From contig OX597814.1 in NCBI GenBank assembly GCA_951406725.2, forward strand, positions 21,204,001 to 21,268,000: DNA of 64,000 nucleotides. The letters run 5' to 3'. The stretch is from Octopus vulgaris. Its lineage: Eukaryota. Each line of letters starts with the position of its first letter. The first letter of the stretch is position 1. Under the pieces are notes generated by a model, which ran no database searches, was not told where the DNA came from, and saw nothing but the letters and a program-made list of their open reading frames with translations. Below are positions 1,863 through 61,382 of this stretch, piece after piece. The position numbers were made by a program, and so were the translations under genes.

Positions 1863-2525
1863 CATTTAAGATTGAACTCTTAATTGATCAAAGCTTTGTG
1901 AGTGAAATTTGGGAGACGGAAACTTTATGGAAGGCCACCATAAGAACCATTTCTACTGTTGGAGAGCAGAGTTAATCTAATCTGTTGCCCAGTTTAACAA
2001 AACAACCATTCGGCTGCAGATTAAAGCAAAGGGAACAGCAGGATGTTGATTTAAGTATCACTACAGTGCTACTACATACTACAGTCCATGTGTATATATC
2101 TTTTATCTTCTACTAGCTTCAGTCATTAGACTACAGCCATGCTGGGGCACCACCTTGAATTTTTTATAGCTGAATCAATCAGCCCCAGTACTTATTTTTT
2201 AAGCCTAGTACTTATTTTATCGGTCTTTTTATTTATATATATATATATATATGTATATATCATCATCATCATCACCACCGCAAAACGAATGTGGAATGAT
2301 GACGATGATATGTGTGTGTGTGTGTGCATGTGTGCATGCATGTGTTTTTTTGTATGTGTGTGTGTGTGTATGTGTGTGTGTGTGTGTATGCGTGTGTGTG
2401 TGTGTGTGTATAAGTATTGCCAATTGAGCAGAATATGCTTCACTGGAGAGGCCTAATAAGACTGAAACGTCCATTACTTTTTGGCTTTAAAGACTACACA
2501 TCAATCCAGTCTGTATTGTCTACAT

Positions 2526-2807
2526 CAGTGGTTCTCAAAGTGGGGGTGGTATTGCTCCCCCACTCACTGGAGGTGGTGAAAAGTTCCAAGGGGCATTGAA
2601 AAAAAGTAGGGCAATAATAGGGTAGTGATTCATGTAAAAACAACAAAATAATGGGTTCATTAGGTTAAGTTTTATTTGTGAAATACAGTTGCTTTGAATT
2701 TTCTCAAAAAGAGGTCTATGTTTGTGATGTTTAGTTGAGGTAGGGGTGCTAGGAATATGGCCTGGGTGTCAAGGGGGTGGTAGCCTGAAAAAGTTTGGAA
2801 ACTACTG
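2526..2807. mobile_element. hAT-superfamily (Charlie/Buster-like) MITE
   Basis: Imperfect TIRs CAGTGGTTCTCAAA ... TTTGGAAACTACTG; exact 8-bp TSD GTCTACAT at 2518-2525 and 2808-2815 with central TA. Confidence 0.9.
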
Positions 2808-3502
2808 GTCTACATTATCTAAATTTTGAAAAATAACAAATCTTCTTATAGTATCCCACTTGCATACTGTTTCAAGAACGTCTTAGAGAGAGAGTTTTTG
2901 TCTGTTAATTCCTTGAAGATTTTCAACTCACTACACCACACACACATGAGACCTTCTTATATTTATACTTGACATTATTTATTTTTGTGTTACTATGAAT
3001 CTAAAATATATTTTATTACTTAAGTATTGCAATAATTTTCTTTCCAACTATTTACAAGAATTATTTATGAGGGAAATTTACAAAATCTTGGAAAATAAGA
3101 AAATATGTATAAAAAGAAAATATAAAGAAATCTGTGAAAAATTATATTTAGAAAGGAAAACACATCGAATATATGAGAGACTGAATGTGTGTGAATATTG
3201 TCTGAGGGTGTATATAAAAGCAAAGTGTGTGTGTGTGTGTGTGTTTGAGACTGTTGTGAATGTGTATTCAATTCAATGTGCTCAGTTATTGCTTTCTCAT
3301 TGCAGAGATAAAACCCTGTTTGTATTTCTTCATAAACTTTCGGTTTTAAGTTTCTGATCTTTAACTTTTATTTGTTTCAGTCAGCAGACCGAATTGTTTT
3401 GTTGAACAAATCAACCCCAGTGCTCACTTCTAAGCTTGACACTAACTCTATTGGTCTATTTTGATGAACCCTGAGTTACAGGTTTGTAAACAAATCAACA
3501 CT

Positions 3503-3902
3503 CTTTTACTTGTTTCAGTCATTTGACTATGGCCATGCTGGAGCACTACCTTTAGTCGAGCAAATTGATCCTAGAATTTATCCTTTGTAAGCATAGTACT
3601 TATTCTATCGGTCTCTTTTGCCGAACCGCTAAGTTACAGGGACGTAAACACACCAGCATCAGTTGTCAAGCGATGGTGGGGGACAAACACATACACACAA
3701 ACATATACACACAAACATATACACACACACATATATATATACATATACACGACGGGCTTTTTCCAGTTTCCATCTATCAAATCCACTCACAAGGCTTTGG
3801 TTGGCCTGAAGCTATAGTAGAAGACACTTGCCCAAGGTGCCATGCAGTGGGACTGAAGCCAAGACCATGTGGTTGGTAAACAAGCTACTTATCACACAGC
3901 CA
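3503..3902 (-). mobile_element. tRNA-derived SINE (family B)
   Basis: Near full-length match to the copies at 1488-1862 and 61540-61950. Confidence 0.8.
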
Positions 3903-13280: not shown

Positions 13281-14295
13281 AATGAAAATCTTAAGGTATT
13301 TTATCAAATTATAATTATTTTTGAAGATCCAACTCTGTATTGAAGAACCAGTGTATGTAGATCAGCTAGTACAGAGGAGATGTAATCGAAATTAATAGAA
13401 GGGTTCCAATAGTTAGTATTTTCTCTTTCTTTGCTAGCCAACATATTTGAGACATTTATAAGGTCAACCGTGGAAGACATGATAAATTATACAGCAAATT
13501 TGAATGGGTGGACCTATTCACTATAAATCCTGATCTTATTTTAAACCAAATCTAAAAACACAAAGCTTAAATGCTATGACATTATGTGAATTCACTAATA
13601 TATAGAATTGTTACATAAACAACTAAAATGTCCAAGTTAAATATTATCTTCTGATATCTCCTGATACCCAACCTTAGTATAATGTAAATTTATATTTGTG
13701 TTCTAACATTGAAAATGTGATTCTGTTAACTTAAATTTATTATTTGTGCTGTAGTTTTGCTTTTGGCCTAAGGTTAAAATAAAAACTGCACATTATAAAA
13801 TGTTTCTTATTTAAGAATCCTGATTTAAATTAATGAGGATGGTTAACATTGCAGTGTCTGAAAGATTTTAGTAGTAACCTGGTTCATTCGACCGAATGAG
13901 GGAAAGCTCAATTATTGTATGATGAGTTAGAGAAATAGAATAGCATATCTCTAACAAAAATGGAATAGCAAATCTCTAGCAAAAATGAAGCCTGCCCATT
14001 TACCATTGCTATTCAATTTGATAACTGTAATTTGTTTAATTTAAAGAGTTGGAAATCTGAGTGTGGCCTCCATCAGCCAAGGTTGGTCATGCATCTGCAC
14101 ATGTATGTACATGGCTGGATAAGATTTTTTGAGGAAGACTAGCAGTGGCCCATACATGTAAGTCTTACCTTTCAGTACTACTAATATTTATCTAAGGGAA
14201 ATGACACCAGCTTGGGCTGAAACAGCCTGGCACCAGTATCACTGCATATATGAATAAATATAAATATATAAAAATTATATAAATAAATATGTAAA

Positions 14296-15782
14296 TCATC
14301 ATCATCAGCATCATTTAATGCTTGTTTTCCATGCTGGCATAGGTTGGATGGTTTGACTGGGGACTGGCAAGCCAGGAGGTCACACTAGGCTCCAATCTCA
14401 GTTGGTAATGTTTCTACAGCTGGATGCCCTTCCTAACGCCAACTACTCTAAGAGTGTAGTGGGTACTTTTTACATGCCACCAGCATGGGAGCCAGTCAGC
14501 GGCACTAGTATTGGCTACATTCAGATGGTGTTTTTTATGTCCCACCAACACAGGAGCCAGTCGGGGCAGGGCCTGGCACTGACCATGTTCGGATAGTGTT
14601 TTTTATGTACCACTGGCACAGGGAGCCAGTCAAGCAGATCTGGCAATAACACATGCATGCATGGTGCTTATTGCATGCCACCAGCACAGGATCCAGTCAG
14701 GTGGCACTGGTATCAGCCACAACTACAATTGCCATTTGATTGTGATTTTATTTGATTTGATTTTGATTTTGGTTTTGATTTACTTGACTCAATAGGTCTC
14801 AAGTAGGGCAGGTCACCTGATGATTCAAAGGTACTTTTTTAAGTGGGCTGGTTATGTGATACTGGTGTAGGCTATGGCTGTGATCTCACTTTACTTGCGG
14901 GTCTTCTCAATCATAGCATATCTCCAGAGGTCTCAGTCTTTCGTCATTACCTCTGTGAGGCCCAACATTTGAAAGGTCATGCTTCACCACCTCATCCCAT
15001 GTCTTCCTGGGTCTACCTCTTCCATAGGTTCCTTCCACTGTTAGGGAGTGACACTTCTTCACACAGCTCTCCTCACCCATATGTAGCACATGACCATACC
15101 AGTGCAGTTGTCAATCTTGCACACCACATCTGATGCTTCTTAATTCCAACATTTCTCTCAGGGCACTTACCCTGTCGTGTGGGCATACTGACATTACACA
15201 TCTAGCGGATCATACTAGCTTCATTTCTTTCGAGCTTACACATGTCTTCAGCTGTCACAGCCCATGTTTCACTGCTGCGTAGCATGGCAGTTCAAACACA
15301 TGCATCATACAATCTACTTTTCACTCTGAGCGAGTCACCAGCAGAGGTAGGAGCTTTCTGAACTTTGACCAGGCTATTCTTATTCTAGTGGCAATGCTTT
15401 CTGAGCATCCACCCTCACTACAGCTTTGGTCACCAAGGTAGTGGAAGCTATCAACTACTTCTAGTTTCTCCCCCTGGAATGTGATGGAATCAGTTCTGAA
15501 CATCTGCAGTGTTTATTGCCCCTGTGCATCTGCCATACACAAAAGCCATCTTCCCAGTTAGCCTTCCTTTGATGTTACTGCACCTCTTATGCATCCATAG
15601 CTTACACTGGGTACATCTTATGGAGTTTCTACCTACACCTTTTCTACAGATCAAACAGGGCCATCTACCTGAAAGGGTTTGTGATGTGTTCACCTTCCTA
15701 CTTACTAGGACTTTGGTTTTTGCAACATTGATTCTAAAACCCTTCGATTCTAAACCTTGCTTCCACACCTGAAATTTCTTCT
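14296..15782 (-). mobile_element. 5'-truncated decayed RTE LINE
   Basis: ORF pieces WKQGLESKG..WPCLICRKGVGRNSIRC, LEVVDSFHYLG and RGRPRKTWDEVV, then 3' UTR repeats and a (GAT)n tail; same family as 59568-61382. Confidence 0.9.
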
Positions 15783-18221: not shown

Positions 18222-18618
18222 AGGCATAAACATGGCTGTGTGGTGAAGAAGTTCATTTCCAAACATGTAGTTTTGAGTTCAATTCCACAATGTTGCACCT
18301 TGGGTAAATGCTTTCTACTATAGCTCTAGGTTGATCACACCTTTGAGAGTAGGTTTGGTAGACAGAAACTGAAAGGAAGGGCTTAAGCACCAACTGATCG
18401 TGGCCATTGCCAGCCTCGCCTGGCACCTGTGCCGGTGGCACATAAAAAGCACCCACTACACTCATGGAGTGGTTGGCATTAGGAAGGGCATCCAGCCGTA
18501 GAAACACTGCCAGATCAGATTGGATCCTGGTGCAGCCTCCCAGCTTCCCAGATCCCGGTCGAACCGTCCAACCCATGCTAGCATGGAAAACGGACATTAA
18601 ACGATGATGATGATGATG
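18222..18618 (+). mobile_element. SINE family B head joined to an RTE 3' end
   Basis: SINE head to ~18380, then RTE 3' UTR (gttggcattaggaagggcatccagcc..gcatggaaaacggacattaaac) and (GAT)n. Confidence 0.75.
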
Positions 18619-19457
18619 AAATATTTGCATACATCTGCATATGCACGTAAATATTACAATCGCGTTTTCTGCAGTATTTGCATTACAATTACAAAAATTT
18701 GCATTTCTTATTTAAACTGTTCAATTTCTCATGCTCTTTCACCTTCTTTTTGTTTCTCTCTTTCTCTGCAACCCCCCACATCACACTGGCTATATAGTTT
18801 CTCTTTTGTCTGTAAACAAACAGTTCATTCATATGGTGTCATTTATTTCCACCATGCCCAGGCTGCTTCTTGTTAAATAAACTGAGAGATTATTATCACA
18901 TTTGGAAACAGGTTGGAGTTGGTATCAGGAAGGGCATCCGAATGTGCACAACTTTGCTCCAACATATGCTCATCTGACCCATGCAAGCATAAAAAAGTTG
19001 ACATTAAAACAGTGATAATGATGATGGTAATGATGATGATGATGATGATGATGATGATGTAGCTTAGACATCTACAAATGCTCGTAAATATTACAATGAT
19101 GTTCACTGTAATATTTGCATTTCTTATTTAAACTGTTCAACTTCTCACACATTTTCACTTACTTTTTTTTTAACTTTATCTGCCTCCACCCCCACCCCAA
19201 CACAATCTTCATATTTTCTCATTTGTCTCTCCCTGAACTGTGAGGTCAAGATATTGCTCATTGATTAGCAAATAGCCCCATTGTTTTGTTACATGCAATT
19301 CTTTATTCTATGAAATAAGTACAATAATATATCAGACAACAGACTCTATCTCTATTCTTGCAGCGTTCAACCAATCATTATAACTTTTCCCTCCACTTAC
19401 AACTGACCATATAAGGAGTTACAAACAGTATTAATTTGAACCATCAAGAGAGCCTCT

Positions 19458-19865
19458 ATCATCATCATCATCGTTTAGCATCCGCTTTCCATGCTAGCAT
19501 GGGTTGGACGGTTCAACTGGGGTCTGGAAGGCCAGAAGGCTTCACCAGGCCCAGTCAGATCTGGCAATGTTTCTACGGCTGGATGCCCTTCCTAACGCCA
19601 ACCACTCTGTGAGTGTAGTGGGTGCTTTTACATGCCAGACGAGGCTGGCAAACGGCCACGATCGGATGGTGCTTTTTACATGCCACCGGCACGGGGGCCA
19701 GGCGAGGCTGGCAATGGCCACGATCGGATGTGCTTTTTACGTGTCACCAGCACAAGGCCACTCGGGGCGGCGCTGGCAACGGCCACGTTCGGATGGTTCT
19801 CTTACGTACCACTGGCACTGGTATCACAGCAACAAATTCCATTGATGTTGATCGATTTCGATTTG
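19458..19865 (-). mobile_element. RTE 3' UTR fragment
   Basis: (ATC)n tail plus ggatgcccttcctaacgccaaccac and tandem ~58-bp units. Confidence 0.8.
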
Positions 19866-20941: not shown

Positions 20942-20969
<28 letters not shown>

Positions 20970-20978
<9 letters not shown>

Positions 20979-21306
20979 TATTAGAGACAAAACCACTATT
21001 TTGCAAAACAAACAAGGAAAGACTTAATCAATACATAAAATTTTAATAAATAGTCAAAAACCGCCACTACAATCGTTTCTTGTCTTGATCGACAATCTTC
21101 AGGTGGACTTCAATAAGTCAGTTTCAAATTATAAAGTCTTTATAATTTGAAACTGACTTATTGAAGTCCACCTGAAGATTGTCGATCAAGACAAGAAACG
21201 ATTGTAGTGGCGGTTTTTTTGACTATTTATTAAAATTTTATGTATTGATTAAGTCTTTCCTTGTTTGTTTTGCAAAATAGTGGTTTTGTCTCTAATAATA
21301 TTTTAT
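20970..21306. repeat. Near-perfect palindrome, ~167-bp arms, 1-nt centre at 21137
   Basis: By eye the arms differ only in the length of one A/T run (5 vs 7); the element lies between (TA)n tracts. Confidence 0.95.
21168..21210 (+). ncRNA. Type I minimal hammerhead ribozyme (mirror copy on the minus strand at 21064-21106)
   Basis: ccac CTGAAGA ttgtc-gatcaa-gacaa GAAAC gatt GTA gtgg: stem I, catalytic core, stem II and a short near-palindromic stem III. Confidence 0.8.
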
Positions 21307-21679
21307 AATATTTTACTATAAAATTGGATTTAATCCTAAATCTGATTTTTTTCCTGTAAATTTGGATTTATTCCCTAATATTTATTATTATATATATATA
21401 TATATATATATAAATGATTACAATGGTTTTAGAACATTCACTACCACTGCGAATTGAATTACTTAAGTAACACAATCCATCAATTTCTTTTAGAGGATTG
21501 TGATCGTCCAGTTATTTGAAAGAATCTATTTCGATGTGTTCTTAGGGTTTATTGCTTCCATTCATCTGCCACATATTCATCTCCCTTCTCAGTTAGCCTG
21601 CCTGTGATCTCACTACATCTGTTTTACATTGGGGACATCATATCTTATGCATCTCAAGCATGTCCATTTCACTGATGGT

Positions 21680-24260
21680 AGAAGAGGCAAAGTTGGCAGT
21701 ATATTCTCCACATCGTACAAATGATGTACCGCTCACGGCGACGCTGGAGAGAGTAGAGTTTCAAGGCTTTAAGGCGATCCCAATAATCGAGAGCAGCCAT
21801 GCCTTCAATTCGTTTAGTGAGTGCCCTCTGGGGTGATTCAATCCTCGAGATGTTTTGTCTTGTATGGGGAGACCACAGTGGGCAGCAGTATTCGTACAAA
21901 GGAGGAGAAAAGTGGTATGATGACACCTTGTTCTCTGGACCGGAAAGTTCTTAAGATCCAGGAACTCATCCTACGAGCTATATCGACCTTCTTGTTGATG
22001 TGTGCACTCCAACTGAGATCGTCATCAACAATTACACCCAGGTCTCTGATATTGTTAGAGGCTGTGAGCGGTTCCCCTGAAGGAAGAGAGTATGGCTGTT
22101 TTAGTGAGGAATTTCTTCCAAAATGCATCAGCTCAAATTTTCCCTCATTCAGTTGCATTTTGTTTCTGTCTGCCCATTCACTCACAGCATATAGATCAGA
22201 CTGGAGTTGAGTTCGGTCTGCTTCTTCATTGACGATTTACTGGAGCTTAGTGTCATCAGCAAATATTTTCACTTTGCAATAATGTACGACACTGGAAAGG
22301 TCGTTTATATAGATTATAAAGAGTAGCGGGCCCAAGACAGTCCCCTGGGGGACACCGCTGGTGACTTTTGCTGGGCTTGAGTGGACTCCATCAACTACAA
22401 CATGTTGTGTTCTATTCGCCAGGAAATACTTAATCCAGTGAAGAACTTTTTCACGGATTCCAACATTTGCCAATTTTGAGAGTAGGATATTATGGTCTAC
22501 CCTGTGGAACGCTTTATTGAAGTCAAGACATATGACATCAGAGTTCGAACCTGTTCCCAAGGCTTTGAGTATATCTTCAATGTGGTGTAAGAGCTGTGTT
22601 AGACAGTCTCTGCCACAGCGAAAGCCATGCTGATTTGCATTTAGGAGTTTGTGGGCCTCCAGGAAGTCAGCTATCCTTGATCTTAACACTCTTTCAAACA
22701 CTTTAATGATGTGGGAGGTGAGTAAGATTGGGCGATAGTTGACTGCGAGGGATCTGTTTCCCTGTTTGAAAACCGGGATGACTGACTGGGATAGAAACTG
22801 TTTCGGTATATAACCTGCGTCTAACGAATTTCTCCAGAGGTTGGTCAGAGGGACTGCAAGTTGGTGTCTACATTCATTCAGGAGACTAGTGGGGAATCTT
22901 TCAGGGCCTACAGCAGAGTAGTATTTGACCTCATTTATTGCTGCTACGATGTCAGTGGCAGTGAAGGTTATGTCTGAGATTTTATGTTGGGAATCAACTT
23001 CGTTCGCTTCTCTTACGTCAATATCAGTATCAGTGGGAACACTAAAGACAGAACAGTATTGTTTCTGCAGTATTTCTGCCATTTCTTTAGCATCGTGTTG
23101 GGGAATGCCGTTATCATCAATCAATGGCCCAATGGATGAGACAGTGGTTCTATGCTTATTTGCATAAGAATAGAACACTTTTGGGTTCCGTTTGATATTT
23201 TTGATTACCCACTGTTCCTCCACAGCTCTTTGATTTTCAATGGAGGTTTTCATGTCGGTCTGCAGATGAAGTTTTTCCAGCTCTAGCCTTTTCATTGTTG
23301 TTGAATGTGGATGTTGTATGTGGGAATATTTTAATTGGTTGATTCTTTTATTGAGTCTTTTGATGCGCCTGATGAGTGTTTTTTCTTTTTAGGGAGCCGG
23401 TTTCTGTTTGTGTTAGTAGATTTCGTGGGAGCGTATTTAGAGCATGTATAGGTGACAATGTTTTCAAAGTGCTGCCATGCGGCCTCAATATGGGTGGAAT
23501 TGAGAGTAAAAGACCAGTCGATGAAAGACAGATCCTTTCTGATTGCTCCCCAGTCCGCTTTGTGGAAGTTTATGTTGTCAAATGAATGCCATGGAGTATT
23601 CTGAGAGGAGGGTTTTTTCAACTGAAATACTGTGAACGAAGCTAGAGTGATTGGTCAATACCAGATCCAAGATCGTTTTATTCTGTCTCGTTGGTTCGAA
23701 TACTAGCTGAGTCAGGAAGAATTCATCCATTAGATTAAAGAGCAGTTCTGCTGCTGCTCTATCTGATGTAGAGCATTTGCCTAACTTCAGAGTATTTGTG
23801 GGCCAGTTCACATGAGGGAGGTTAAAATCACCCATCACTAGTATGTTTCCGGAGTTATACTTCCGAAAGAAGGACTTGACTTTGCTAAGGCACACTTCAA
23901 AGCACTTTAGAGGTGCTTGGGGAGGCCTGTAAAGACCAACAATGATTATGTCCTTGGCCTTGCTGAATAGTGATACAGATTCACAATAGCCATTGGAAAA
24001 TATGTCCTTGGCATCAAGTGAAAAGGAGTCATGGATAAAGATGGCTGTCCCTCCCTTATTTCGGTCTGTGCGATCCGCACGAACAATGGTGAAATCTTTT
24101 ATTTTCACCTCTGCGTCCATATGGGTGTTGTTCAGGTGAGTCTCAGTAAGGATAAAGAAAGGGAAGCAATGTGCCGTTTCGGCAAGCCAACTCTCTATAG
24201 ATGGGATCTTCCATTTTTGGGCAATAATTGATGGGTTGATGCCACGTACATTTAACAGAA
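21680..24260 (-). pseudogene. LINE ORF2 (endonuclease-reverse transcriptase), disrupted
   Basis: LLNVRGI, LTETHL, GLYRPP, GDFN, LDLVL (EN); NYRPI, QHGFR, LDFNKAF, GVPQGTVLGPLLF, FADD (RT); RDLGV and EYCCPLWSP (CR1-type C-terminus). Confidence 0.9.
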
Positions 24261-40204: not shown

Positions 40205-40384
40205 AATGTATATATGTATGTATGTAAGTATGTATGTATGTATGTATATATTAACGTGAATGTCGAATGACGAGAATGAGTGTTCAACACTTCATTGGTG
40301 GATAAAATTTCTTTGTGCATAGGACCACCATTGATTTCAAATGGTGTCCATCTCCAAAATGGACTTAATTGCCAAAGCTACACG

Positions 40385-40930
40385 CCTGGTACTAGAAGAG
40401 AACGCTTTTAGATTCGATGATAAAATATATCGACAGATAAAAGACACTGTTCAGGAGGCGAGGTTTGCACCCTAGTATGCTAACCTAGTCATGAGGTTCC
40501 TAGAAAATAAGCTTTACGATGAAGTAGAGAAAGCTTTTAATGATAATTGCAAGAAATACGTCATTGGAGAATGGAAGCGCTACCTCGATGAATGCCTCAT
40601 TTTTTTGGACAGGTCAAATGAAGATCTCCAAATATTTAATAACATCCTCAACATACCTCACTCATTTATCAAATTCACGACAGAAACTAGTTATAATGAA
40701 TTACCATTCTTGGATATTCACATAAAAATACATGACTCCACAGTTACAACCGAGATATTTTATAAAAAAAAAAAAACCGGATACGCACCAGTATTTGAAT
40801 TTCTACTCTTCTATCCCTCACACATCAAAAGGAACATCCCATACAGTATGGCAAGACGTATCTGTACAATACTAATTGACCCCCAAATACATCAAATCCG
40901 AATTAATGAGCTCAAAGGAACTACACAAGA
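40385..40930 (+). pseudogene. Penelope-like element reverse transcriptase fragment
   Basis: NAFRFDDKIYRQIK..FAP*YANLVM, WKRYLDE, IKFTTE, LPFLDI, TEIFYK and HIKRNIPYSMARRI. Confidence 0.85.
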
Positions 40931-41679
40931 GGAACTACACAAGATTCCACTGAGTAAACATATAGACATATGTGGATAAGGAAAATTCAAAATCTTCCCC
41001 TTCTAGAAATGTTGAAGGGATGACCATTTTATAAAAAAACAATTCTCACCAAAACAATACGTTCGAAAGAAAAGCAACGATAATATGCATGAACACTCTT
41101 TCAAATGGAGGAATTTATGGACAACACAGTTTTCTTACACAGCCGCTGTACCCAGCTAACTTTCATGGAAAATACGACTGGGGAGAAATAATGCGAGTAC
41201 TTGAATACTCCAGTGTTACCCTCTCCAAACAAATCGTTTTAAATCAATCAACATTGGAGCGAATGTATATTTTCATTGAACTTCGAACTCTAGATTTATT
41301 TGATACTTTATAATTGTGAATATACTTACTTAAGAATCATTTTTCAATCACAAAGAAACGTTTATATCTACAAACATTTTAATATGTATATGATAAGGGA
41401 AGGGGGGAGGGGGAGACTTTCAAAATCAATGATTGAATAAAGAATAACATTTTGAATTGAAATTGAATTTCAAAGAGTTGACCACATCGATACAAATTAT
41501 AAACTGAAAAGAAGCTTCTTTCTCTCTGTCTTTCCCTTTCATTTTTCTTCTTTCTCTTTGCTCTTTTCTTTTTCTTCCTACAAGTGACATCTTGAAAGGT
41601 CATTTAACATCAGCATACTTTCTTCTACTCTCTCCTCCTTTCCTCCGTTTTTCAATTTCTCCTCTTCTAAACAAAAAAC

Positions 41680-43980: not shown

Positions 43981-45682
43981 CAAACATAAAATGAAAGTGT
44001 GTAACAGTAACAGTGTGTAACAATTGAACTTACGTCAAAGAAACTACTACCAATACCCTTCCATAGTGAAGTAGATAGTCCACAGTTCAGTTGGTAAAGA
44101 CTTCAGTTATCCATCGAGGTTTACAATAACAGGACTCACATGGAGCGTACACACTTTCTACTCAAAAATAGACGTTTCTGCCAGCTCGCCGCCTTGTCAA
44201 TATGTATATAATGAGGAATAGTATTGCCCAAATAAATATTTGGATACAGTTATCTGGAATAGCCTTTCGCAGAATTAACATGTTCACACAGAACGTGATC
44301 AGTATTTCAGATTGTCTATTCGCACAACCATGATAAGAAATCCAAGTTGAGCAAGATTTTAAAACGCACAAGGGTGTGACGATTGTTAAAAGAGAAGAAT
44401 AGTAGTCTTAAAAACGTGTAATGCTATTTTTTCTTAGAAAAGAACTCAAATAGAGGGAATTCTTCCATTGTGAAATTTAGCGTTGCAAATTATGCTTTAT
44501 CAGACATATTTCAGAAGCTTAAAATGAACATAAAGTTTCTGCAATGGAAGAATGTAAGCAATTTCACTCTGAAGGTAGATCGAAGCATTTCTTAACAAAA
44601 CACTTTTATGGAAACAGTACAAAATGACGATCATAATCGAGTATTCGGTGGTATAGAAAAATATTTCCGCAAATAATTTCTGCCAGACATGGTCATTTGC
44701 AAATTGGATCGCGACCAAAATTAATTCTTTGTTGTAAAGGAATAGATAAAAAAAATTACTTTGAAGTTTCAAGAATTTACTAAGCTATTTATTTGAGTGG
44801 AATCTAAATTTTTACAAGAAATGAACTTATTTTTTTCTATGAATGTGGAATCATAATTTCCAATACTAGATGAATTTTCAATGGTAGCACTTCTTTTCTC
44901 TTCCCTGTATCTATGTGAATCTGTATTTTAAGCTTCCACGGTAGAAAGCAAAAACAAAATCCTGTATACCTTTAAGAACGTAGAATTTCCTAATGAACAT
45001 TACTGACAATTTGTCATCTCTTATGTGCATGAGTTATGTATTGTACTGAAACAATCTTATTTACTCTTAATAAAGTTTTGTCTACTTTGTTTTTTTATAT
45101 TCCGAGCTTTAGTTTATCATTTATATTTTGTTTAGAAGAACTGCTTATACGTTGTGTTCTATAGTTTCTTATTTATGATAACGAAAGTATTATTAAATCT
45201 CAGAACGAGATGTAAACAGTAATCGCTCGACAATGTAAAGTATGAAAGCCATCTCAATATGGCTAACCACAAAGGGGGGTGTTACTGTAGGTTTTTAGCC
45301 CCAGGAGATCATCGTCTCCAGCTGGCTTCAGATACACTTTCTGTGCTCTTCAGGTATTTGCAAAGGGAGGCCATCCCTTTCTCGTAAGATTATTGTCTCT
45401 TATCAACGGGTGGTAACCACCAGATCACGATTAATTCTTTATTACGATTATAAAATCAGTACATAGAAGAACAATACAGGACATACATACAAAAAACAGT
45501 TAAGTGGTTCGTTTAAAAATTTCCAAAATATATGGATTATTCATTATACAAAAAACTGTATTTAAATTGTCCTTTGCATTGACTAATATAACATTACATT
45601 AGATTGAAATTTTACCGATATATTTTAAACCCCGGCAACCTATAAGGCCCCGCAGCTTCCCTTTCCTCTTCTCCATCCTTGT

Positions 45683-48600
45683 TTAAACTGGGTTTCTGAC
45701 ACCCACCTTTTTCACCACTTCCTTCCATCTTTTTTCATACACACTTCGTGGTAAGGTCTTCTTTTCCAGCTCCATTTTGCTCTTCAGATGATATCTGAAG
45801 TAAGTGAGCAAGCCGGGGCCTGAGACAAAGGACCCTATTGCGACTCCTTCCATTCTTGTACGCCACATGCATTCTTTTACTACTGCAACCGTGCAGTGAA
45901 AACATGCCTCACCTTCCTTCGAGAGTCCAGTTGGCGGTATCATCTTAATCATAGACTCAGCCGACAGCTGTACTCGTCCCAGATGCGATAACACGTGTTC
46001 TGCGTAACTTATCAAGTCTGACAACTGCCGACAGTGTACAAAAGCGTGCTGGACGGTTTCATCGTCCAACCCGCATCTTGGACATGTCGGTGGCACTGAA
46101 ATTCCGTGCTGCGATAACTTCTCGCGAACAGGTAAAGCATTCCTATAACACTGCCAGGCGAGGGATCTTTGGAAATTATCCAAATACCCCGTCCTGAAAG
46201 TCTTTTTAAACAGGTTGGTAAGCTGGTCCACTTCGAACCCCAGAGCCCCTCCTAGGACGTCGTCGTTCTTTGCCTCTACCAGCCTGCTATAAAATACCGA
46301 GGTGGTATTTCCGCAGCCGGCCTTGCCCGCCTTGTGGATCAGCGTGTGTGCCTGTCGGCACTCCTTTTGCCATAAAGTCAGATTCCGTCTTTTGATGCAA
46401 CCGGGTTTAAAATTCACTAAGGAAGCCGGTCTCGGGAAAAATTCCCCTGCCAGCGGACTCCACACCTTATCACCCTCCAGGTGGTGCCAGAGATGCTTCA
46501 GTCTCAACGCATGTCTGCGCATCATCAACCAAGGCATTCCTAACCCACCCTTTAACGGTTCCTGGCAGCAAACGGAGCGCCTCACAAGTGGCATTCCTCC
46601 CTTCCACAAAAAGCGGAAAAGGATTCGCTCCAACTTGCTAAGCCATGAATCGGGGCAAGGGACAACGGTCAGGCGGTAAGTGATTACAGATGCAATAAAC
46701 ATCTGTACCACCTCCGCCCTTCCTTTCAAGGACAGAAACCTTCCGGACCAGGTCCGTACTATGGCCTCCACCTTGCCCGTCACCTCACTCCAATTCCTCT
46801 CCGTTTGGGAGTCTGGCCCAAACCAAACTCCTAGCAACTTAACAGGACCATCTGTCCAGTGTCCCACGGCACTGGACGATATCGACTTGCTTCTCCAGGT
46901 GCCGAGGCGTAAGCCAATCGACTTGTCCTTGTTAACCTTTGCTCCTGCCACCCCCTCGTATCCTCTGATAGCATCTTCTACACAAGGTAGCTGAGCCTCA
47001 TTGGACACGATGATGGTGACGTCATCGGCATAAGCAGAAACCGTCCTCCTGCCTCCGATCTCATCCGGGTTACTTCCCAGCCTCTCCAACTTTCGCAGCA
47101 ATGGCTCGAGAGCCAACACGTACAAAATTGGTGACAAGGGGCAACCTTGACGAACTGAACATTCGATCGAAAACGGTTCCGTTAGGTAACCGTTTATCTG
47201 GACGGTGGACTTGATGCCGCTATACATTGCGGAGATCCACCCGCGAAATTCAGGGCCCAGTCCAGCCGCTTCGAGGACCGTCGCCAGGTACTTATGGTCT
47301 ACCCTATCGAACGCTTTACTTTGGTCTAGATGGACCATTACCCCACCCTTGCCGGTTAATTTACCCACCCTATCTAAGGTGTAGCGTATAAGGTGAAGAT
47401 TGTCCTGGATCGACCTACCTGGAATTGCACATGTCTGTGCTTTCTCTACAAGTTTCTCAACGACAGTCGTCAACCTTTTTGCCAACACCTTGGCCAAAAT
47501 CTTTAACTCTACATTAAGTAGAGTTATGGGCCTGTAATTACTAATGTTATACCCCTTGCTCGGGTCTTTCTGGATTAGCGTCACCACTCCCCGGCTTACA
47601 GAACTGGGAATTCTCCCGTTCTGCTGCCAGTTCGCGTAGACGCCTGCCAGTATTCCCCCGAACAAGTCCGGCATACTTTGAGAAAACTCGTAGGACAGAC
47701 CATCCAGCCTCGGCGACTTCTCCCCGGCGCATCCGGCCAGTACCCCCTCTATCTCCGCGGGAGTGATCGCTCCTTCACAGCACTCCACCTCACGCCCCGA
47801 GAGCCGCGGTCCGCCGGCTAGGAAGTCCTTTAAGGCCCTCCCCCGCTCCAGCGACCCCCCCCCCCGAACGCGCGGGCGAAATGCTGGTGAAGAAACTTTT
47901 GCATCTCCTCCTGTCCATAGATCTTGTGTCCCTCTTCGTCAGTTAAAGACTTGATTGAAGCTTTGTTGCCTCTCTAACTCTCCACTCGACGGGCCCATCC
48001 GGTAACGTTAATACCTTCTCGTTTCCCTGCGCGTAGCTTAGCTCTAACTCTGCAACGTTCGTGTTTGGAGTTAAGGTGACGGTACAATACCGTCCTTGCC
48101 GCCATCACTCCGGATGCAGAGCCAGATTCCATTGCCTCGTTTAGATTCTTAACTAAATCGTCCTCTATCCTAGACCTATCTAACCTTAGCTGATTGCTAA
48201 ATCTAATGGACTCTGAACGAATGGCTCTTTTGAGGGAGTGCCACCATCTATTGTTAATGATGGTGCCACATAATGCCCTTAATCCGGGTACGGAAGTCTT
48301 CACAATTCAAAATAGACTGTTCAGCTTCCAGTACCCGGGTCCCTGTCTATGACACTTATCTAATTGCACCCTACAAGTCACAAATTTGTGATCCGTGTAA
48401 GGCACAATGTGAAACTGTGGACAACTAAACGTATCCTTATCTCTTTTCCTAACGAATATCCTATATATATACGATCTGCGTGAGCCGGCGTTGTTACTCC
48501 ACGTCCACTGTGGAACGCTCGGCTCATCCAGTCGATAACGGTCTACCAGATTAAAGCTCTCTAGTAGACCCTTGAGGCTAGGGTTCCCCTTCCTATTGGT

Positions 48601-49056
48601 TGAGCCAACACTGTCGACCCGCGCTTCGAGGACAGTGTTAAAGTCTCCTACTAAGACTACCGTTTTCGACATCACTAAAAAGTGCTCCAGATTCCGAAAA
48701 AAACCCGACTGCCTACACTCATTCGGAGCATAGACAGCTACCAACCTGAAGGACTGTTTACTTACGTGGGTCACATCCAGAACGACCAGCCTGCCTTCTG
48801 GGTCCAGAAAGACAGTACTTACCTGCAAGTCCAAGCTCTTCCTGATAAGGACTGCCACGCCCCTTCCTCCTCCTCGGCTAGGAGAAATAAATTTCTCGAA
48901 ACCATTTAGAAGAGGCGAGAACGCTTGGGCCCCGTTCATCTTGGACTCGGTTACAATAGCTACGTCCACTCCGTGTGTCGTGAGGTCGTTCAGGAGACAA
49001 ATTTGTTTCCATTTCGACCCCATTCCACGCACATTCACACAACCCAGCTTTGCCAT
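45683..49056 (-). pseudogene. Tx1/L1 ORF2 (APE, RT, C-terminal CCHC), frameshifted
   Basis: CVNVRG, VYAPN, VGDFN, YTDH, GYWKLN; NYRPITLLN, LDQSKAFDRV, RQGCPLSP, AYADD; CPRCGLDDETVQHAFVHC. Confidence 0.92.
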
Positions 49057-49755
49057 TGTCGGAGAGAGAAAAAAATAAATAAACTCACGGTTGGGACAGG
49101 GAGCATGACAGTTTAAATCTGCATGCTTCCACTTCTTCCTCCCTTGTGGTCGTAGCTGCAGGGCTCTTAACCGGAGTTGCCATCGGGCTCTGTGTAGGTG
49201 TGGTTGCCGGGGTTATAGTAAGTTTGCCCTCCAGTATTTCGTTAGTTACGTCTCTGATAAGGTTATTTTAAAAATGTTATTGGAGTGTTTTTTCCTTCCA
49301 CTCGTCTTCCTTTATTTTTGCAAAACGAGTGGTCGACTTAGTGTCTGCAGACTTACTCAATAATTTCAGTTTTGAAAATTTAAAATACTTGAACACTCTA
49401 TCGTTTTTCTCGTCGAATGCTACAATCTTTTCATTTTTTTTAATCAATTTTTTCCAATCTTGTTTTATGGGGAGGGGCTTGGCGAACTGTGTTCCAATGA
49501 ATACAGTGCCGTGGGGGATAGGGCTGGGGAATTTGTTTTGTATGTATCTCTGCGGTGTTTGCTGATTTTTTCTTTGTTTGGGGAGGGGAGTCCAGGGTAT
49601 TTTCTTTTTTTTCTTTTGTGTGTCACCTGTGTAAATTCCATTAGTTCATTTTTATCTTCCGTTTCGATTCCCTTCCTTGTCGCAGTCTTGGGGTCTTTTT
49701 CCGCCTTTCCTTTTTCTGTGTTTGAAGCACTTTGAGGAGGGGCTTCGCTGTTTTT

Positions 49756-50522
49756 CTATTTTTTTATGCAGTTCGAGTGGACGTGACCCTTTTCACCACA
49801 TTTGAAACACCTAGGTCTGCGCCCCTCCACTGACACTCTCATTGTAATTCCCTCCTCAATAAATACCCTATCGGGTAAGTTTTCTAGCACATTATTTTCT
49901 GCTTGAACTAGGAGTTCAAGCGCTTGTCCCTTCCAGTTTACCTCCTCTTTCCTTTTCATCTGCAGAATTGAGACTTTCTGCTCTACGTCGTGCAGAACCG
50001 CCGCTGCTACCCACATTATATCATATCCTCTTGGAATGTCTTCCACATATAGTTTCGCAGTTCTTTTTCCCATATAGGTAGGTAGTAACATGATGTCCTC
50101 ACTTTTTAAGGTCATCGATGAAATCTCTCTTGCCACATCAGCCGAGTCGAAATGTGCTTCAACGGTAGCGCTGCGGGTACCTCGACCGACGTAGCGAATT
50201 TTGCTCCACACCAGGGACAAGCACTTCTCTACTATTTCGTTCTTCACGTCCATTATTTTTTCTCTTTGTTACTGTAAACCTTGTATACGACTGTCTTGGT
50301 CTTTATTTCCTGTAATATCGCTTGCGGCGGTACCAGTTTTATTTCGTTGCCTTCCTTTTTTACCAAGTTCCGGTATTCGAACAACTGTTCTATTTTAAAT
50401 TCTACTTCCGTTACGGTTCGGCCCACTGCGGCCGAAAAAGACTGTTTTTTAACCTCGATATCCTTCTGTTCGCTTTTTCCCATCACGGGAAAGTCGCTCC
50501 TCGACGCCAAATCGAACTCCAT
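49756..50522 (-). pseudogene. Tx1/L1 ORF1 with CCHC knuckle, frameshift near 50253
   Basis: SFSAAV N-terminus; RPRCFKCGEKGHVHSNC. Confidence 0.85.
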
Positions 50523-53500
50523 TTCTCAAATTATGAGAACCAATTTTTCAATAATAAAAAAAAAAAATTACTCCGAAGGTAATAACAATGTTTATACACA
50601 GAATTTTCAGCCCCGTAGGGCGAAAATACTGTCACACAACGAACAACTGTTCAAATTCACGAGCAAACACAAACAACGACGAACAAAAAACGAACTCACT
50701 CAACAAAATAGGCAGCTAACTTCTCAATATGCAGATGAAAGAGGGGTCCCAAGACGAGTCAAAACACCAGATCACGATGAAAGACAAGGCCTGTTTGCAA
50801 ATATATAAGAGTTTTCCTAGTGACGTCTGCCACTGATTTCGAAAAACTGACTGTAAGCATTATTAAATCTCAGAACGAGATGTAAACAGTAATCGCTCGA
50901 CAATGTAAAGTATAAAAGCCATCTCAATATGGCTAACCACAAAGGGGGGTGTTACTGTAGCTTTTTAGCCCCAGGAGATCAGCGTCTCCAGCTGGCTTTA
51001 GACACACTTTCTGTGCCCTTCAGGTATTTGCAAAGGGAGACCACCCCTTTCTCGTAAGCCTGAGTGATACGCACCGGACCGGTTATTATACTTTACATTG
51101 TCGAGCGATTACATCTCGTTCTGAGATTTAATAATGCTTACAGTCAGTTTTTCGAAATCAGTGGCAGACGTCACTAGAAAAACTCTTATATATTTGCAAA
51201 CAGGCCTTGTCTTTCATCGTGATCTGGTGGTTACCGCCCGTTGATAAGAGACAATAATCTTACGAGGAAGGGATGGCCTCCCTTTGCAAATACCTGAAGG
51301 GCACAGAAAGTGTGCCTAAAGCCAGCTGGAGACGATGATCTCCTGGGGCTAAAAAGCTACAGTAACACCCCTCATTTGTGGTTAGCCATATTGAGATGGC
51401 TTTTATACTTTACGATAACGAAAGTGGGTTCCGAAAAAGTTCATGTGGTAAAAGGACTCACAAAGGAAGATACATTGTCTCACACAATCAAAATTCACGA
51501 CACCAAAACTGTTCATTATCCCAGTAAATAACCTATTTCAAATTAGTTTCTCACCTTGACAAACTCTTCAAATTTTTTTCCTAAAGGAATTTGCCCAGTA
51601 CTAAGAATACATTCTACGTGTCATTTGTTTTAACACTGAAAACGCTTCTAACGTCCTCAGCGTGAGGGAACCTTGCAGATAACCATCTTTTTCATGTCAC
51701 AGAATTTCTTTTTCCTTTCTCATCGTGCTTCTTTATAATTACGGCATAGCCAGATCTGTCAATAACTTTCTTTCACTAAGGTACACATTCAGTGGTCTCT
51801 TGTCCCTTTTTACTTAAGTCAAGTTAATGTTATTTAACTTGAAAGCAAAGCTAGGAATACCATTCTATGTTTCCCATTTTGTGCATCCTCACGGTGAGAA
51901 ATGTATTACAAGACCGCCCTACTGTAGATTTTCTTTGTCTAATTCTAGTGGTGGTAACATTCAATGATCTTAGATAATTCTACCCACCATATTCTGCCTT
52001 ATCTTCATTAAAGTTCGACGATAAAAGTATTTAAGGACTAGGTCGAAGATATTCAACCTGATCGTAGGCCTACTACCCACTAAACGCCTTTGAAATTGGT
52101 GTTGCTTCCTCATTGCACTAGCACCATATAGATAACATTTGAGCTCACTCTATTCTGGGTTAAGTTGAGTTAATTAGCTGTCTTTTTGTAATTGTAAAAT
52201 TCACGTTTCGTTAGAGCCATGGTGTTTGAAAACTAAAAAGGAAATAGAATCTTAATTCAATTGCTGAGACAAGTATAAATCATAAAAAAGTTACGTTTAT
52301 GTTTCTAAATAATAACTTGAATTTCCACTGTGAAAATATCGAAAAAAAAAAACCGGCAAAAAAACTGCAGTTTTAGGTCACTAGTTGAGCACAATTATTC
52401 GTAAAGGTTACACTTCACCTTAGCTGATATCAGTGACTTGCTGCTGCACGCCTGACAGAAGATACAAAAAAGAAAACAACACAAAAAAACCTTATTCTCA
52501 AACAACGAAGATCAATTTACGAAGCCAGTTAACTTTGAAATAGAACTATAAATGCTTGATATCACGTTCTCATAATTACTATCACGTCTTTAGTTATTCA
52601 TTTTCTTTGGCATTCATGAAACATTCACAATTGTAAATTTATCAAAATCAAAGTTTAAAGTTTCGCTCTGAAAAAAAAAACACATTTAATGAAGACAAGT
52701 AATATATCATCAAAATGTATGTAAACACATAGGAGAAAAAGTTTACATATACATATATATGTCGTGTCAAATCACCAAAAATACTGAGAGGAAAAGTTAA
52801 TCGTTCTTGTCCTGTGTAGCTTTAAAGGACATCGTATTATCCAGTAGAAATTACACTATGGTTCTTCGGTTTCGACAAATTCGACGCTTCATCGGATTGA
52901 AACGATTGATTATCACACTATTGCTTATTATGTCTTTATATGGCCTAAGTATTGCCGGTAAGATTTGATTTCCACTTTATAAATCCAACATTATATGGAT
53001 CATACTTACAGCTATTTTGTTCTTTGATCTTTGATCTTGTTTATAAAATTATTTTCTCTATGTTTATTTTAAACAGTGACATTGATTAAGCCTAATGTTG
53101 CTTGACTAATCATGCGATTCAATTCTGATATTTCATGAAATAAAATATAATAATTTTAAATATTTTTTCAAGAATAATGATTTAACTTTAACATATTAGA
53201 TGAGTAACACAAAACAGGAATACCTTATCATCAAATTTTCTTCGTAGCAGGAAAAGAAAACTTAGTTTAAAATGTTGTGTGAGTAGAGGATTTTTCATAT
53301 TCTTTGTAAAACTCCACTTCAAAATTACTACTGACCAAGCTAATAAATATTGTTGCATTCAATATTATCCGAGATTATAAAATTGTATATTCCGAATATC
53401 TTATCAACTAAAGTAGATTATGTTGGCAAATAAATTTATTTTGTTAGAATACATAATGCAAAAACATTGAATTGATGAGCTACAAATATTCTTACACTAA

Positions 53501-60656: not shown

Positions 60657-61382
60657 TCAGGCCGTAACCCGTGGCCCCTACCTGGGACGTAGTCAGTCCA
60701 CCTGTGCATACCTTCCTTCTTGTGACACTTGTGAAGACCTGTTGAGGCAAGTGAAAATCAAACAAAATCAAAATAGATGAACATCAATGGAATTTGTATC
60801 TTTGTGGTACCAGTGCCGGTGGCACACAAGAAAACCATCCGAACATGGCCGTAGCCAGTACCGCAACGACTGGCCTCCATGCTGTGGGCACGTAACAATC
60901 ACCATCCAATCGTGGCCAACCGCCAGCCTAATCTGGCTCCTGTGTCGGTGGCACATAAAAAACACCATCCGAGCGTGGTTGTCTGCTAGCCTTGTCTGGC
61001 ACCTGTGTCAGTGGCACATAAAAACACCATCCGAGCGTGGCCGTTCGCCAGCCTCGTCTGGCACCTGTGTCGGTGGCACATAAAAAACACCATCCGAGCG
61101 TGGTCGTCTGCTAGCCTTGTCTGGCACCTGTGTCGGTGGCACATAAAAACACCATCCGAGCGTGGCCGTTCGCCAGCCTCGTCTGGCACCTGTGTCTGTG
61201 GCACATAAAATCACCCACTACACTCTCGGAGTGGTTGGCGTTAGGAAGGGCATCCAGCCGTAGAAACACTGCCAGATCTGACTGGCCTGGTGCAGCCTTC
61301 GGGCTCCCCAGACCCCAGTTGAACCGTCCAACCCATGCTAGCATGGAAAGCGGACGTTAAATGATGATGATGATGATGATGA
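59568..61382 (+). mobile_element. 5'-truncated RTE LINE inserted in (TA)n
   Basis: Open RT C-terminal half, 3' UTR with tandem ~58-bp units, (GAT)n tail; (TA)n on both sides. Confidence 0.92.

Follow-up and report, generated by a model that had tools for sequence, protein, structure and literature searches.

The 64,000 nucleotides (nt) of Octopus vulgaris DNA analysed here (contig OX597814.1 of assembly GCA_951406725.2, positions 21,204,001 to 21,268,000 of the forward strand; hereafter the window) contain at 45177-51425 a repeat element that is interrupted by a long interspersed nuclear element (LINE). The repeat element is probably one damaged insertion of a high-copy retrozyme of the type without long terminal repeats (non-LTR), with a family unit of about 355 nt and a predicted hammerhead ribozyme with a U3:A8 core, and it would have been copied from a multimeric template and integrated in a Penelope-like manner. 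A first-pass annotation of the window had described it as a product of circular or multimeric RNA without a canonical hammerhead core.

Anatomy of the insertion

The element is flanked by an exact 12-bp target site duplication (TSD; 45177-45188 and 51414-51425, both +), identified as a 12-mer match. The 12-mer has no further copy in the 64-kb window, and a match by chance is expected at about 1e-7 per given place. Without the LINE (45432-50764, -) the element totals 878 nt and consists of a direct arm of 523 nt, a 26-nt segment previously called a linker (51059-51084, -) and an inverted copy of 328 nt. The direct arm repeats with a period of 323 nt, its overlap of 200 nt being 96% identical, and the second-best period scores 33%. 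The same 10-mer opens and closes the inverted copy, at 51087 and 51404; the resulting turn of 317 nt is explained by a 7-nt deletion and a 1-nt insertion. Sequence comparison thus bears out the first-pass annotation in its description of 1.6 direct 323-nt copies, one inverted copy starting and ending on one 10-mer, a 12-bp TSD and a nested LINE. Its statement that the unit has no convincing open reading frame (ORF) or RNA polymerase III boxes holds as well, as the longest ATG frame encodes 36 amino acids (aa) and simple patterns detected no A or B box. The unit has a GC content of 42% and no further copy in the window beyond this element. No LTR pair was found at the element (primer binding site and polypurine tract were not searched for), and poly(A) is absent from both ends.

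Both strands of the unit fold more stably than shuffled sequences. The putative RNA strand is taken to be the one that reads + in the inverted copy, because it folds better (folding z -3.4 to -4.3) than the opposite strand (-2.0 to -2.5). The unit is structured, as had been claimed, but most of the stems listed in support lie on the strand opposite to this functional one. On the RNA-sense strand the arms have a head-to-head orientation and are directed outwards, so that both outer ends are 3' ends.

The left arm, with its RNA sense on the - strand, begins in window order with a 46-nt 3' extension (45189-45234), which resembles a Penelope-type tail and was recognised by comparison with the right end at 51413. 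It is followed by copy A, in which the 3' part of the unit (45235-45388, -) lies downstream of a deleted hammerhead half, and the hammerhead 5' half (45389-45431, -; core U3 to A9 at 45400-45406) is cut off from its 3' half by a deletion at 45388/45389. Beyond the LINE, the middle part of the unit (50765-50858, -) lies upstream of the copy A hammerhead and contains the 5' arm of a long rod. An internal copy of the tail, identical to 45189-45234, marks the head-to-tail join (50859-50904, -), and copy B contributes the 3' part of the upstream unit (50905-51058, -), after which the former linker follows. The inversion junction (51083-51087) is a T-run common to both arms with a single unmatched base at 51085. 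Copy C, the inverted arm (51086-51413), has its RNA sense on the + strand; it opens with 11 nt of the unit end, continues with the tail (51097-51135, +), which carries the 7-nt deletion, the middle part and the hammerhead 5' half (51223-51257, +; core 51241-51247), shows the same deletion as copy A at 51258/51259 and ends with a 3' part that reaches 51413.

TATA-like words are found in both arms (51187-51193 and 50801-50807), about 30 nt upstream of hammerhead stem I, and may represent an internal promoter; such a word upstream has likewise been noted in the pseudo-LTRs (pLTRs) of rotifers (PMC3846280).

The nested LINE has its own 14-nt TSD (45418-45431 and 50765-50778), by which it is placed later than the retrozyme insertion that hosts it. 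Its ORF1 contains a zinc knuckle, and APE endonuclease, reverse transcriptase (RT) and zf-RVT domains are also present; ORF2 is damaged by stops and by a frameshift that separates the endonuclease part from the RT part, and the LINE is near full length. The RT shows 55% identical aa with an Argonauta hians protein. From the domain layout rather than from a tree, we take the LINE to be Tx1/L1-like. LINE groups related to this one are often site-specific. The LINE lies inside the extended stem I of the hammerhead and may target this repeat; its 5' end (50720-50745) has two 9-10-nt words in common with the unit, which may reflect chance or a template switch.

A predicted split hammerhead in a high-copy repeat family

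Part of the stretch was found in 20 of 24 public sequence runs listed, which cover four organisms and 9 studies. Comparison of four runs with 51050-51470 revealed 2974, 2396, 147 and 104 matching contigs. These thousands of contigs, mostly 80-99% alike, identify the repeat as a high-copy, diverged family; the summed contig depth was used for shape only and not as copy number. At least 12 pieces break at 51254-51264 and none bridges this site, among the 32 of 5715 pieces listed. In three of 11 joint rows the interval from 51254-51260 to 51259 holds 31-36 additional letters, which match the linker in reverse complement. GAAA precedes the linker match in all three and the complete stem II 3' strand in two. 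At least three further loose-end rows match the linker likewise (24 of 350 rows listed), one of them a 21-contig consensus.

Judged from these contigs, the linker, which the first-pass annotation had considered unrelated, is family sequence and represents the 3' half of a type I hammerhead retained in copy B: a palindromic stem III, the GUC triplet (51079-51077, -; predicted cut between 51077 and 51076) and the stem I 3' strand. As the linker segment stands in line in other copies, with a net gain of 32-33 nt, the family unit is estimated at about 355 nt, versus 323 nt at this locus, and by the same comparison two of the three copies here (A and C) are without 32-33 nt of the ribozyme. The order in the family contigs is stem I 5' strand with a UUAC loop, UUGAUAA, stem II GAG/CUC around an A-rich loop, GAAA, short stem III, GUC and stem I 3' strand. 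This arrangement, which was read by eye from contigs and window and not scored as one intact locus, corresponds to a predicted type I hammerhead with U:A instead of C:G as its 3-8 core pair. Both 5' halves in the window contain the U3:A8 core, at 51241-51247 (+) and 45400-45406 (-), and among the 40 of 65 variant rows listed neither 51241 nor 51246 changes to C or G. Such cores are known from Penelope elements of schistosomes (PMC4209133), and they are natural and reported to be active in vitro (PMC3088659). The earlier statement that no canonical hammerhead core is present is therefore correct for a one-piece C3:G8 core, but a hammerhead core of the U3:A8 variant is there.

Comparison with Rfam yielded no ribozyme for the region; for the 5' half alone (51210-51257) Hammerhead_HH9 came out on top, matching positions 1-35, cut at the 3' end and with the UUAC loop included, in a weak match (10.5 bits, E 2.5, versus a cut-off of 52). 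Rfam, the sole method applied to these motifs, gave no match for HDV-like, twister, pistol or hatchet ribozymes. Among 2000 shuffles, those as good as the core-anchored stem I numbered 6 for copy C and 27 for copy A. A relaxed hammerhead descriptor gave 18 hits in 60 shuffled windows (2.3 per Mb). The hammerhead halves close a long rod of -46.6 kcal/mol, a value that none of 300 shuffles reached; much of the rod forms even without the linker. Stem III is self-complementary in three of six variants (that of the window and two from family contigs), which fits action as a dimer, and dimer-acting hammerheads likewise have a self-complementary stem III (PMC4209133). Self-cleavage as dimers is predicted for intact members of the family, and the copy at this locus, where none of the three units has a complete hammerhead, is predicted to be inert.

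Other hammerhead candidates were rejected. On the 323-nt monomers a relaxed descriptor returned four rows, each with two core mismatches and none convincing. The word CUGAAG before the ggcaca/tgtgcc hairpin was considered as a decayed hammerhead and dismissed, as most family contigs differ at 51295-51296.

Searches with an exact 21-nt sequence revealed no matches in metagenome contigs or viral contigs. A gapped U3:A8 pattern detected four metagenome loci, none of them unit-like beyond the pattern or folding a stem I, and these were treated as chance. Behind 51413, a shorter unit-end continuation recurs in three of the four runs and points to a second subfamily in which the tail region is shorter.

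Template and mode of integration

The deletion is common to copies A and C, and copy B keeps the hammerhead 3' half. In the RNA sense, the left arm has a unit of the intact type first and the deleted unit after it, and copy B extends 8 nt upstream of the predicted cut site. Since a monomeric circle would give identical turns and the successive units differ by the ribozyme segment, the template was most likely a multimeric, uncleaved transcript and not a single monomeric circle. Of the circular or multimeric template previously suggested, the multimeric form is supported and the monomeric circle is not.

Rolling reverse transcription around a monomeric circular RNA, with registers that differ by permutation, would account for arms longer than the unit, for strong folding as a circle (z -3.4 and -4.3) and for a copy B that crosses the predicted cut or ligation site, and mussel retrozymes of 350-390 nt occur as abundant circles (PMC7229834). 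We nevertheless regard it as unlikely. In both arms an upstream unit with the hammerhead 3' half is joined to a downstream unit without it, where turns of one circle would match, and a unit lacking the ribozyme would be unable to excise itself. The register difference, which the first-pass annotation had ascribed to circular permutation, is a 46-nt offset that fits a Penelope tail, leaving permutation unsupported. The circle would be rescued by a dimeric form, or by a later deletion that was copied between the arms.

The right end of the element lies at 51413 and the left end 46 nt further along the unit. The locus shows a partial tandem and an inverted, 5'-truncated copy in head-to-head orientation, and the direct arm contains the whole span of the inverted arm, with 320 matches in 332 aligned bases. 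Penelope insertions are marked by partial tandems, inverted 5'-truncated copies, TSDs of 8-10 bp and, on one end, a tail of 30-40 nt (PMC8557442, PMC3846280). For one Penelope element analysed in vitro, two adjacent RT start sites flank the tail, both target strands are extended and uncut RNA is the main template (PMC11167929). By analogy, integration by the RT-endonuclease of a Penelope-like element appears likely. The earlier proposal of Penelope insertion or twin priming for the direct-plus-inverted layout can accordingly be narrowed to a Penelope-like layout, as the complete overlap of the arms disagrees with twin priming.

The insertion may then have arisen as follows. A tandem source, with the ribozyme in its upstream unit and without the ribozyme 3' half in its downstream unit, would be transcribed on the better-folding strand, and the RNA would remain uncut at the upstream ribozyme, since copy B passes the predicted cut by 8 nt. 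A Penelope-type enzyme would make a 12-nt staggered cut, with one arm starting at the tail end and the other 46 nt earlier. The arms would join via the T-run, either after priming on both target strands or after the first complementary DNA folded back and copied itself, and the LINE would land in the hammerhead stem later.

The window also contains, at 40356-41045 (+), decayed RT sequence from a Penelope element of the endonuclease-bearing type, 48-54% identical to the Penelope protein P0003. Octopus bimaculoides is among the sources of its relatives. In the relatives a GIY-YIG domain lies at the C-terminus and the protein linker carries a cysteine motif, a combination given for Neptune and Nematis (PMC8557442). 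No DNA match was found between the fragment and the 323-nt unit. A search with P0003 revealed one locus in genome contigs (L005, 29% identity) and none in viral contigs. L005 contains neither a hammerhead descriptor match nor a match to the unit; its Penelope-like RT and endonuclease (positions 2501-3773) lie on a 539-kb contig with many short repeats that is filed as a bacterial metagenome-assembled genome, and it is probably eukaryotic DNA in a bacterial bin.

Several observations weigh against a retrozyme copied from a multimer and inserted by a Penelope enzyme. Substitutions fail to pair copies A and C, each copy having 3-5 private changes, and only the deletion pairs them; gene conversion after insertion could have spread this deletion between the arms. 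The tail of 46 nt is above the 30-40 nt given for Penelope elements (PMC8557442). The fixed 3' end is seen in the window and two contigs (pieces 8 and 32), which are probably one locus in two organisms, and the table of common ends from the contigs of the four runs is empty. No sequence link to an autonomous element was found, and tblastn with 22 Penelope proteins gave no match on the element better than E 0.22. With regard to the ribozyme, a C3:G8 minority may exist among the variant rows outside the 40 listed, three of the six stem III variants are imperfect palindromes, and six ribozyme letters missing at the locus are supplied by contigs only. Rfam returned five matches (E up to 10) for 45100-51500, all within the LINE and none a ribozyme, and for the linker alone no ribozyme and one chance match. 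In free folding of the linker with the whole unit, 168 of 200 shuffles were as good, and with the linker shuffled within the rod 103 and 130 of 500.

The unit could alternatively be only the pLTR of an autonomous Penelope-like element, and the ORF-less insertion a one-off product with no family of its own. Depth in run X1 is 0.88-1.46 million over 51305-51409 versus 18-98 thousand over 51110-51259, and run X4 behaves alike, so that in both DNA runs the depth of the final 120-140 nt exceeds that of the remainder about 10- to 80-fold. Different sequences stand upstream in the loose ends before 51298, and many contigs continue differently after 51413. Depth and upstream sequences together suggest that the end of the unit is common to more abundant relatives or 5'-truncated copies. 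All joints of an ORF-less ring, however, occur in diverged contigs that differ from the window: four rows connect 51413 with the tail and differ from the window in their letters, and pieces 1, 25 and 26 run from the tail to the hammerhead 5' half. The tblastn result with the Penelope proteins also argues against this explanation, and so does the long, loop-bearing stem I, which is of the retrozyme type and not the minimal type of most pLTRs (PMC7229834). We therefore consider a mere pLTR improbable, to about the same degree as the monomeric circle.

Movement of a RNA resembling a short interspersed nuclear element (SINE) by L1/Tx1-type LINE machinery, with inversion by twin priming, is very improbable, even if a LINE sits inside the element and the 12-bp TSD and the microhomology at the junction are compatible with an L1-type route. 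Twin priming takes the inverted piece from upstream, non-overlapping RNA and leaves poly(A) at the 3' end. Here the arms overlap wholly, poly(A) is found at neither end, and the LINE, with its own TSD, came later. Least credible of all is an unrecognised ribozyme or processing route, as suggested in the first-pass annotation and in line with the missing Rfam ribozyme match on the region as it stands, or a DNA satellite or assembly artefact, because a type I hammerhead with a known U3:A8 core, split by deletion and inversion, makes a novel ribozyme superfluous, the TSD is exact, and 9 differences over 154 nt between copies A and C speak against a mis-assembled duplicate.

Elsewhere in the window, a head-to-head palindrome at 20964-21311 (98% over 351 nt) lies beside a (TA)n run. 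Each of its arms carries a minimal type I hammerhead with a C3:G8 core, at 21172 (+) and 21102 (-), and the palindrome is probably what remains of another Penelope family that is unrelated; Rfam detected only hairpin-type matches in the palindrome. A decayed LINE RT piece at 22342-22962 (-) is 27% identical to P0027. Dispersed repeats of one family, which contain an internal tandem unit of 62-65 nt, occupy 60887-61215, 19634-19795, 18385-18642 and 14264-14696.

Comparison with known systems

As retrozymes of this class, their connection with Penelope and U3:A8 cores have all been published, this locus is a useful case and not a surprise. A preprint (bioRxiv 10.64898/2026.07.22.740005) argues from vertebrate data for an origin of animal retrozymes in the pLTRs of Penelope elements, without settling the mechanism; the enzymes that move animal retrozymes and the circle as template are stated to be open there and in PMC7229834 and PMC7761336. 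A literature search that covered neither repeat databases (Repbase/Dfam) nor most subscription journals revealed no retrozyme from a cephalopod and none with a U3:A8 core. As a tentative proposal, octopods may hold a very abundant, unreported retrozyme family that standard hammerhead searches overlook because of its U3:A8 core and whose insertions carry Penelope marks and come from multimeric, uncut templates. If true, the insertion anatomy would provide direct evidence for the mobilisation of animal retrozymes by Penelope enzymes from linear precursors, and circular RNA would be a side product and not the mobile intermediate. The locus illustrates how insertion anatomy can address both the enzyme and the template: the class of the partner is indicated by a tail and an inversion, and the template can be tested by comparing successive units for differences. 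It also shows that searches with a canonical core can miss an entire high-copy family.

The unit resembles metazoan non-LTR retrozymes, described from coral, mussel (350-390 nt) and axolotl (330/350 nt; PMC7229834, PMC7761336, bioRxiv 10.64898/2026.07.22.740005), in being non-coding, tandem, a few hundred nt long and 42% GC. Further similarities are the long TSD, a type I hammerhead with short stem III, the strong fold, the many copies and the presence of Penelope elements in the same genome. With regard to the characters used to define retrozymes, the unit length (323 nt; about 355 nt in the family) lies within 150-450 nt, GC is below 50%, the sequence is non-coding, the TSD exceeds 4 bp, and a type I hammerhead, with U3:A8 core, is present at the family level. 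The retrozyme-like character proposed in the first-pass annotation is supported by this tandem non-coding unit and its family-level hammerhead. In contrast to the known examples, the core is U3:A8 and this locus has no complete ribozyme. Two consecutive complete hammerheads, by which the preprint defines active retrozymes, are not present at this locus. A head-to-head inversion with tail is not described for retrozymes in the accessible text of the two papers and the preprint.

The non-autonomous Chlamys elements such as MRC1 (PMC8557442) are comparable as ORF-less Penelope dependants with pLTRs and head-to-tail multimers; they are from green algae, however, and Naiad/Chlamys are described as lacking canonical hammerheads. 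The same compensatory change of the 3-8 pair is found in the U3:A8 hammerheads of the Schistosoma element Cercyon (PMC4209133) and in other natural ones (PMC3088659). Cercyon motifs are minimal, mostly single and belong to an autonomous element, whereas the octopus motif has an HH9-like fold in an ORF-less tandem unit. Endonuclease-bearing Penelope elements (PMC3846280, PMC8557442, PMC11167929) share with the octopus element the partial tandem, the inverted 5'-truncated copy, a tail-like extension on one end only, a TSD of about 10 bp, the hammerhead in the repeat and the TATA-like word upstream. An ORF for a telomerase-like RT with GIY-YIG, as expected of an autonomous Penelope element, is absent from the octopus element, which further differs from them by the 46 nt of its tail-like extension and by an extended stem I in place of the minimal hammerhead.

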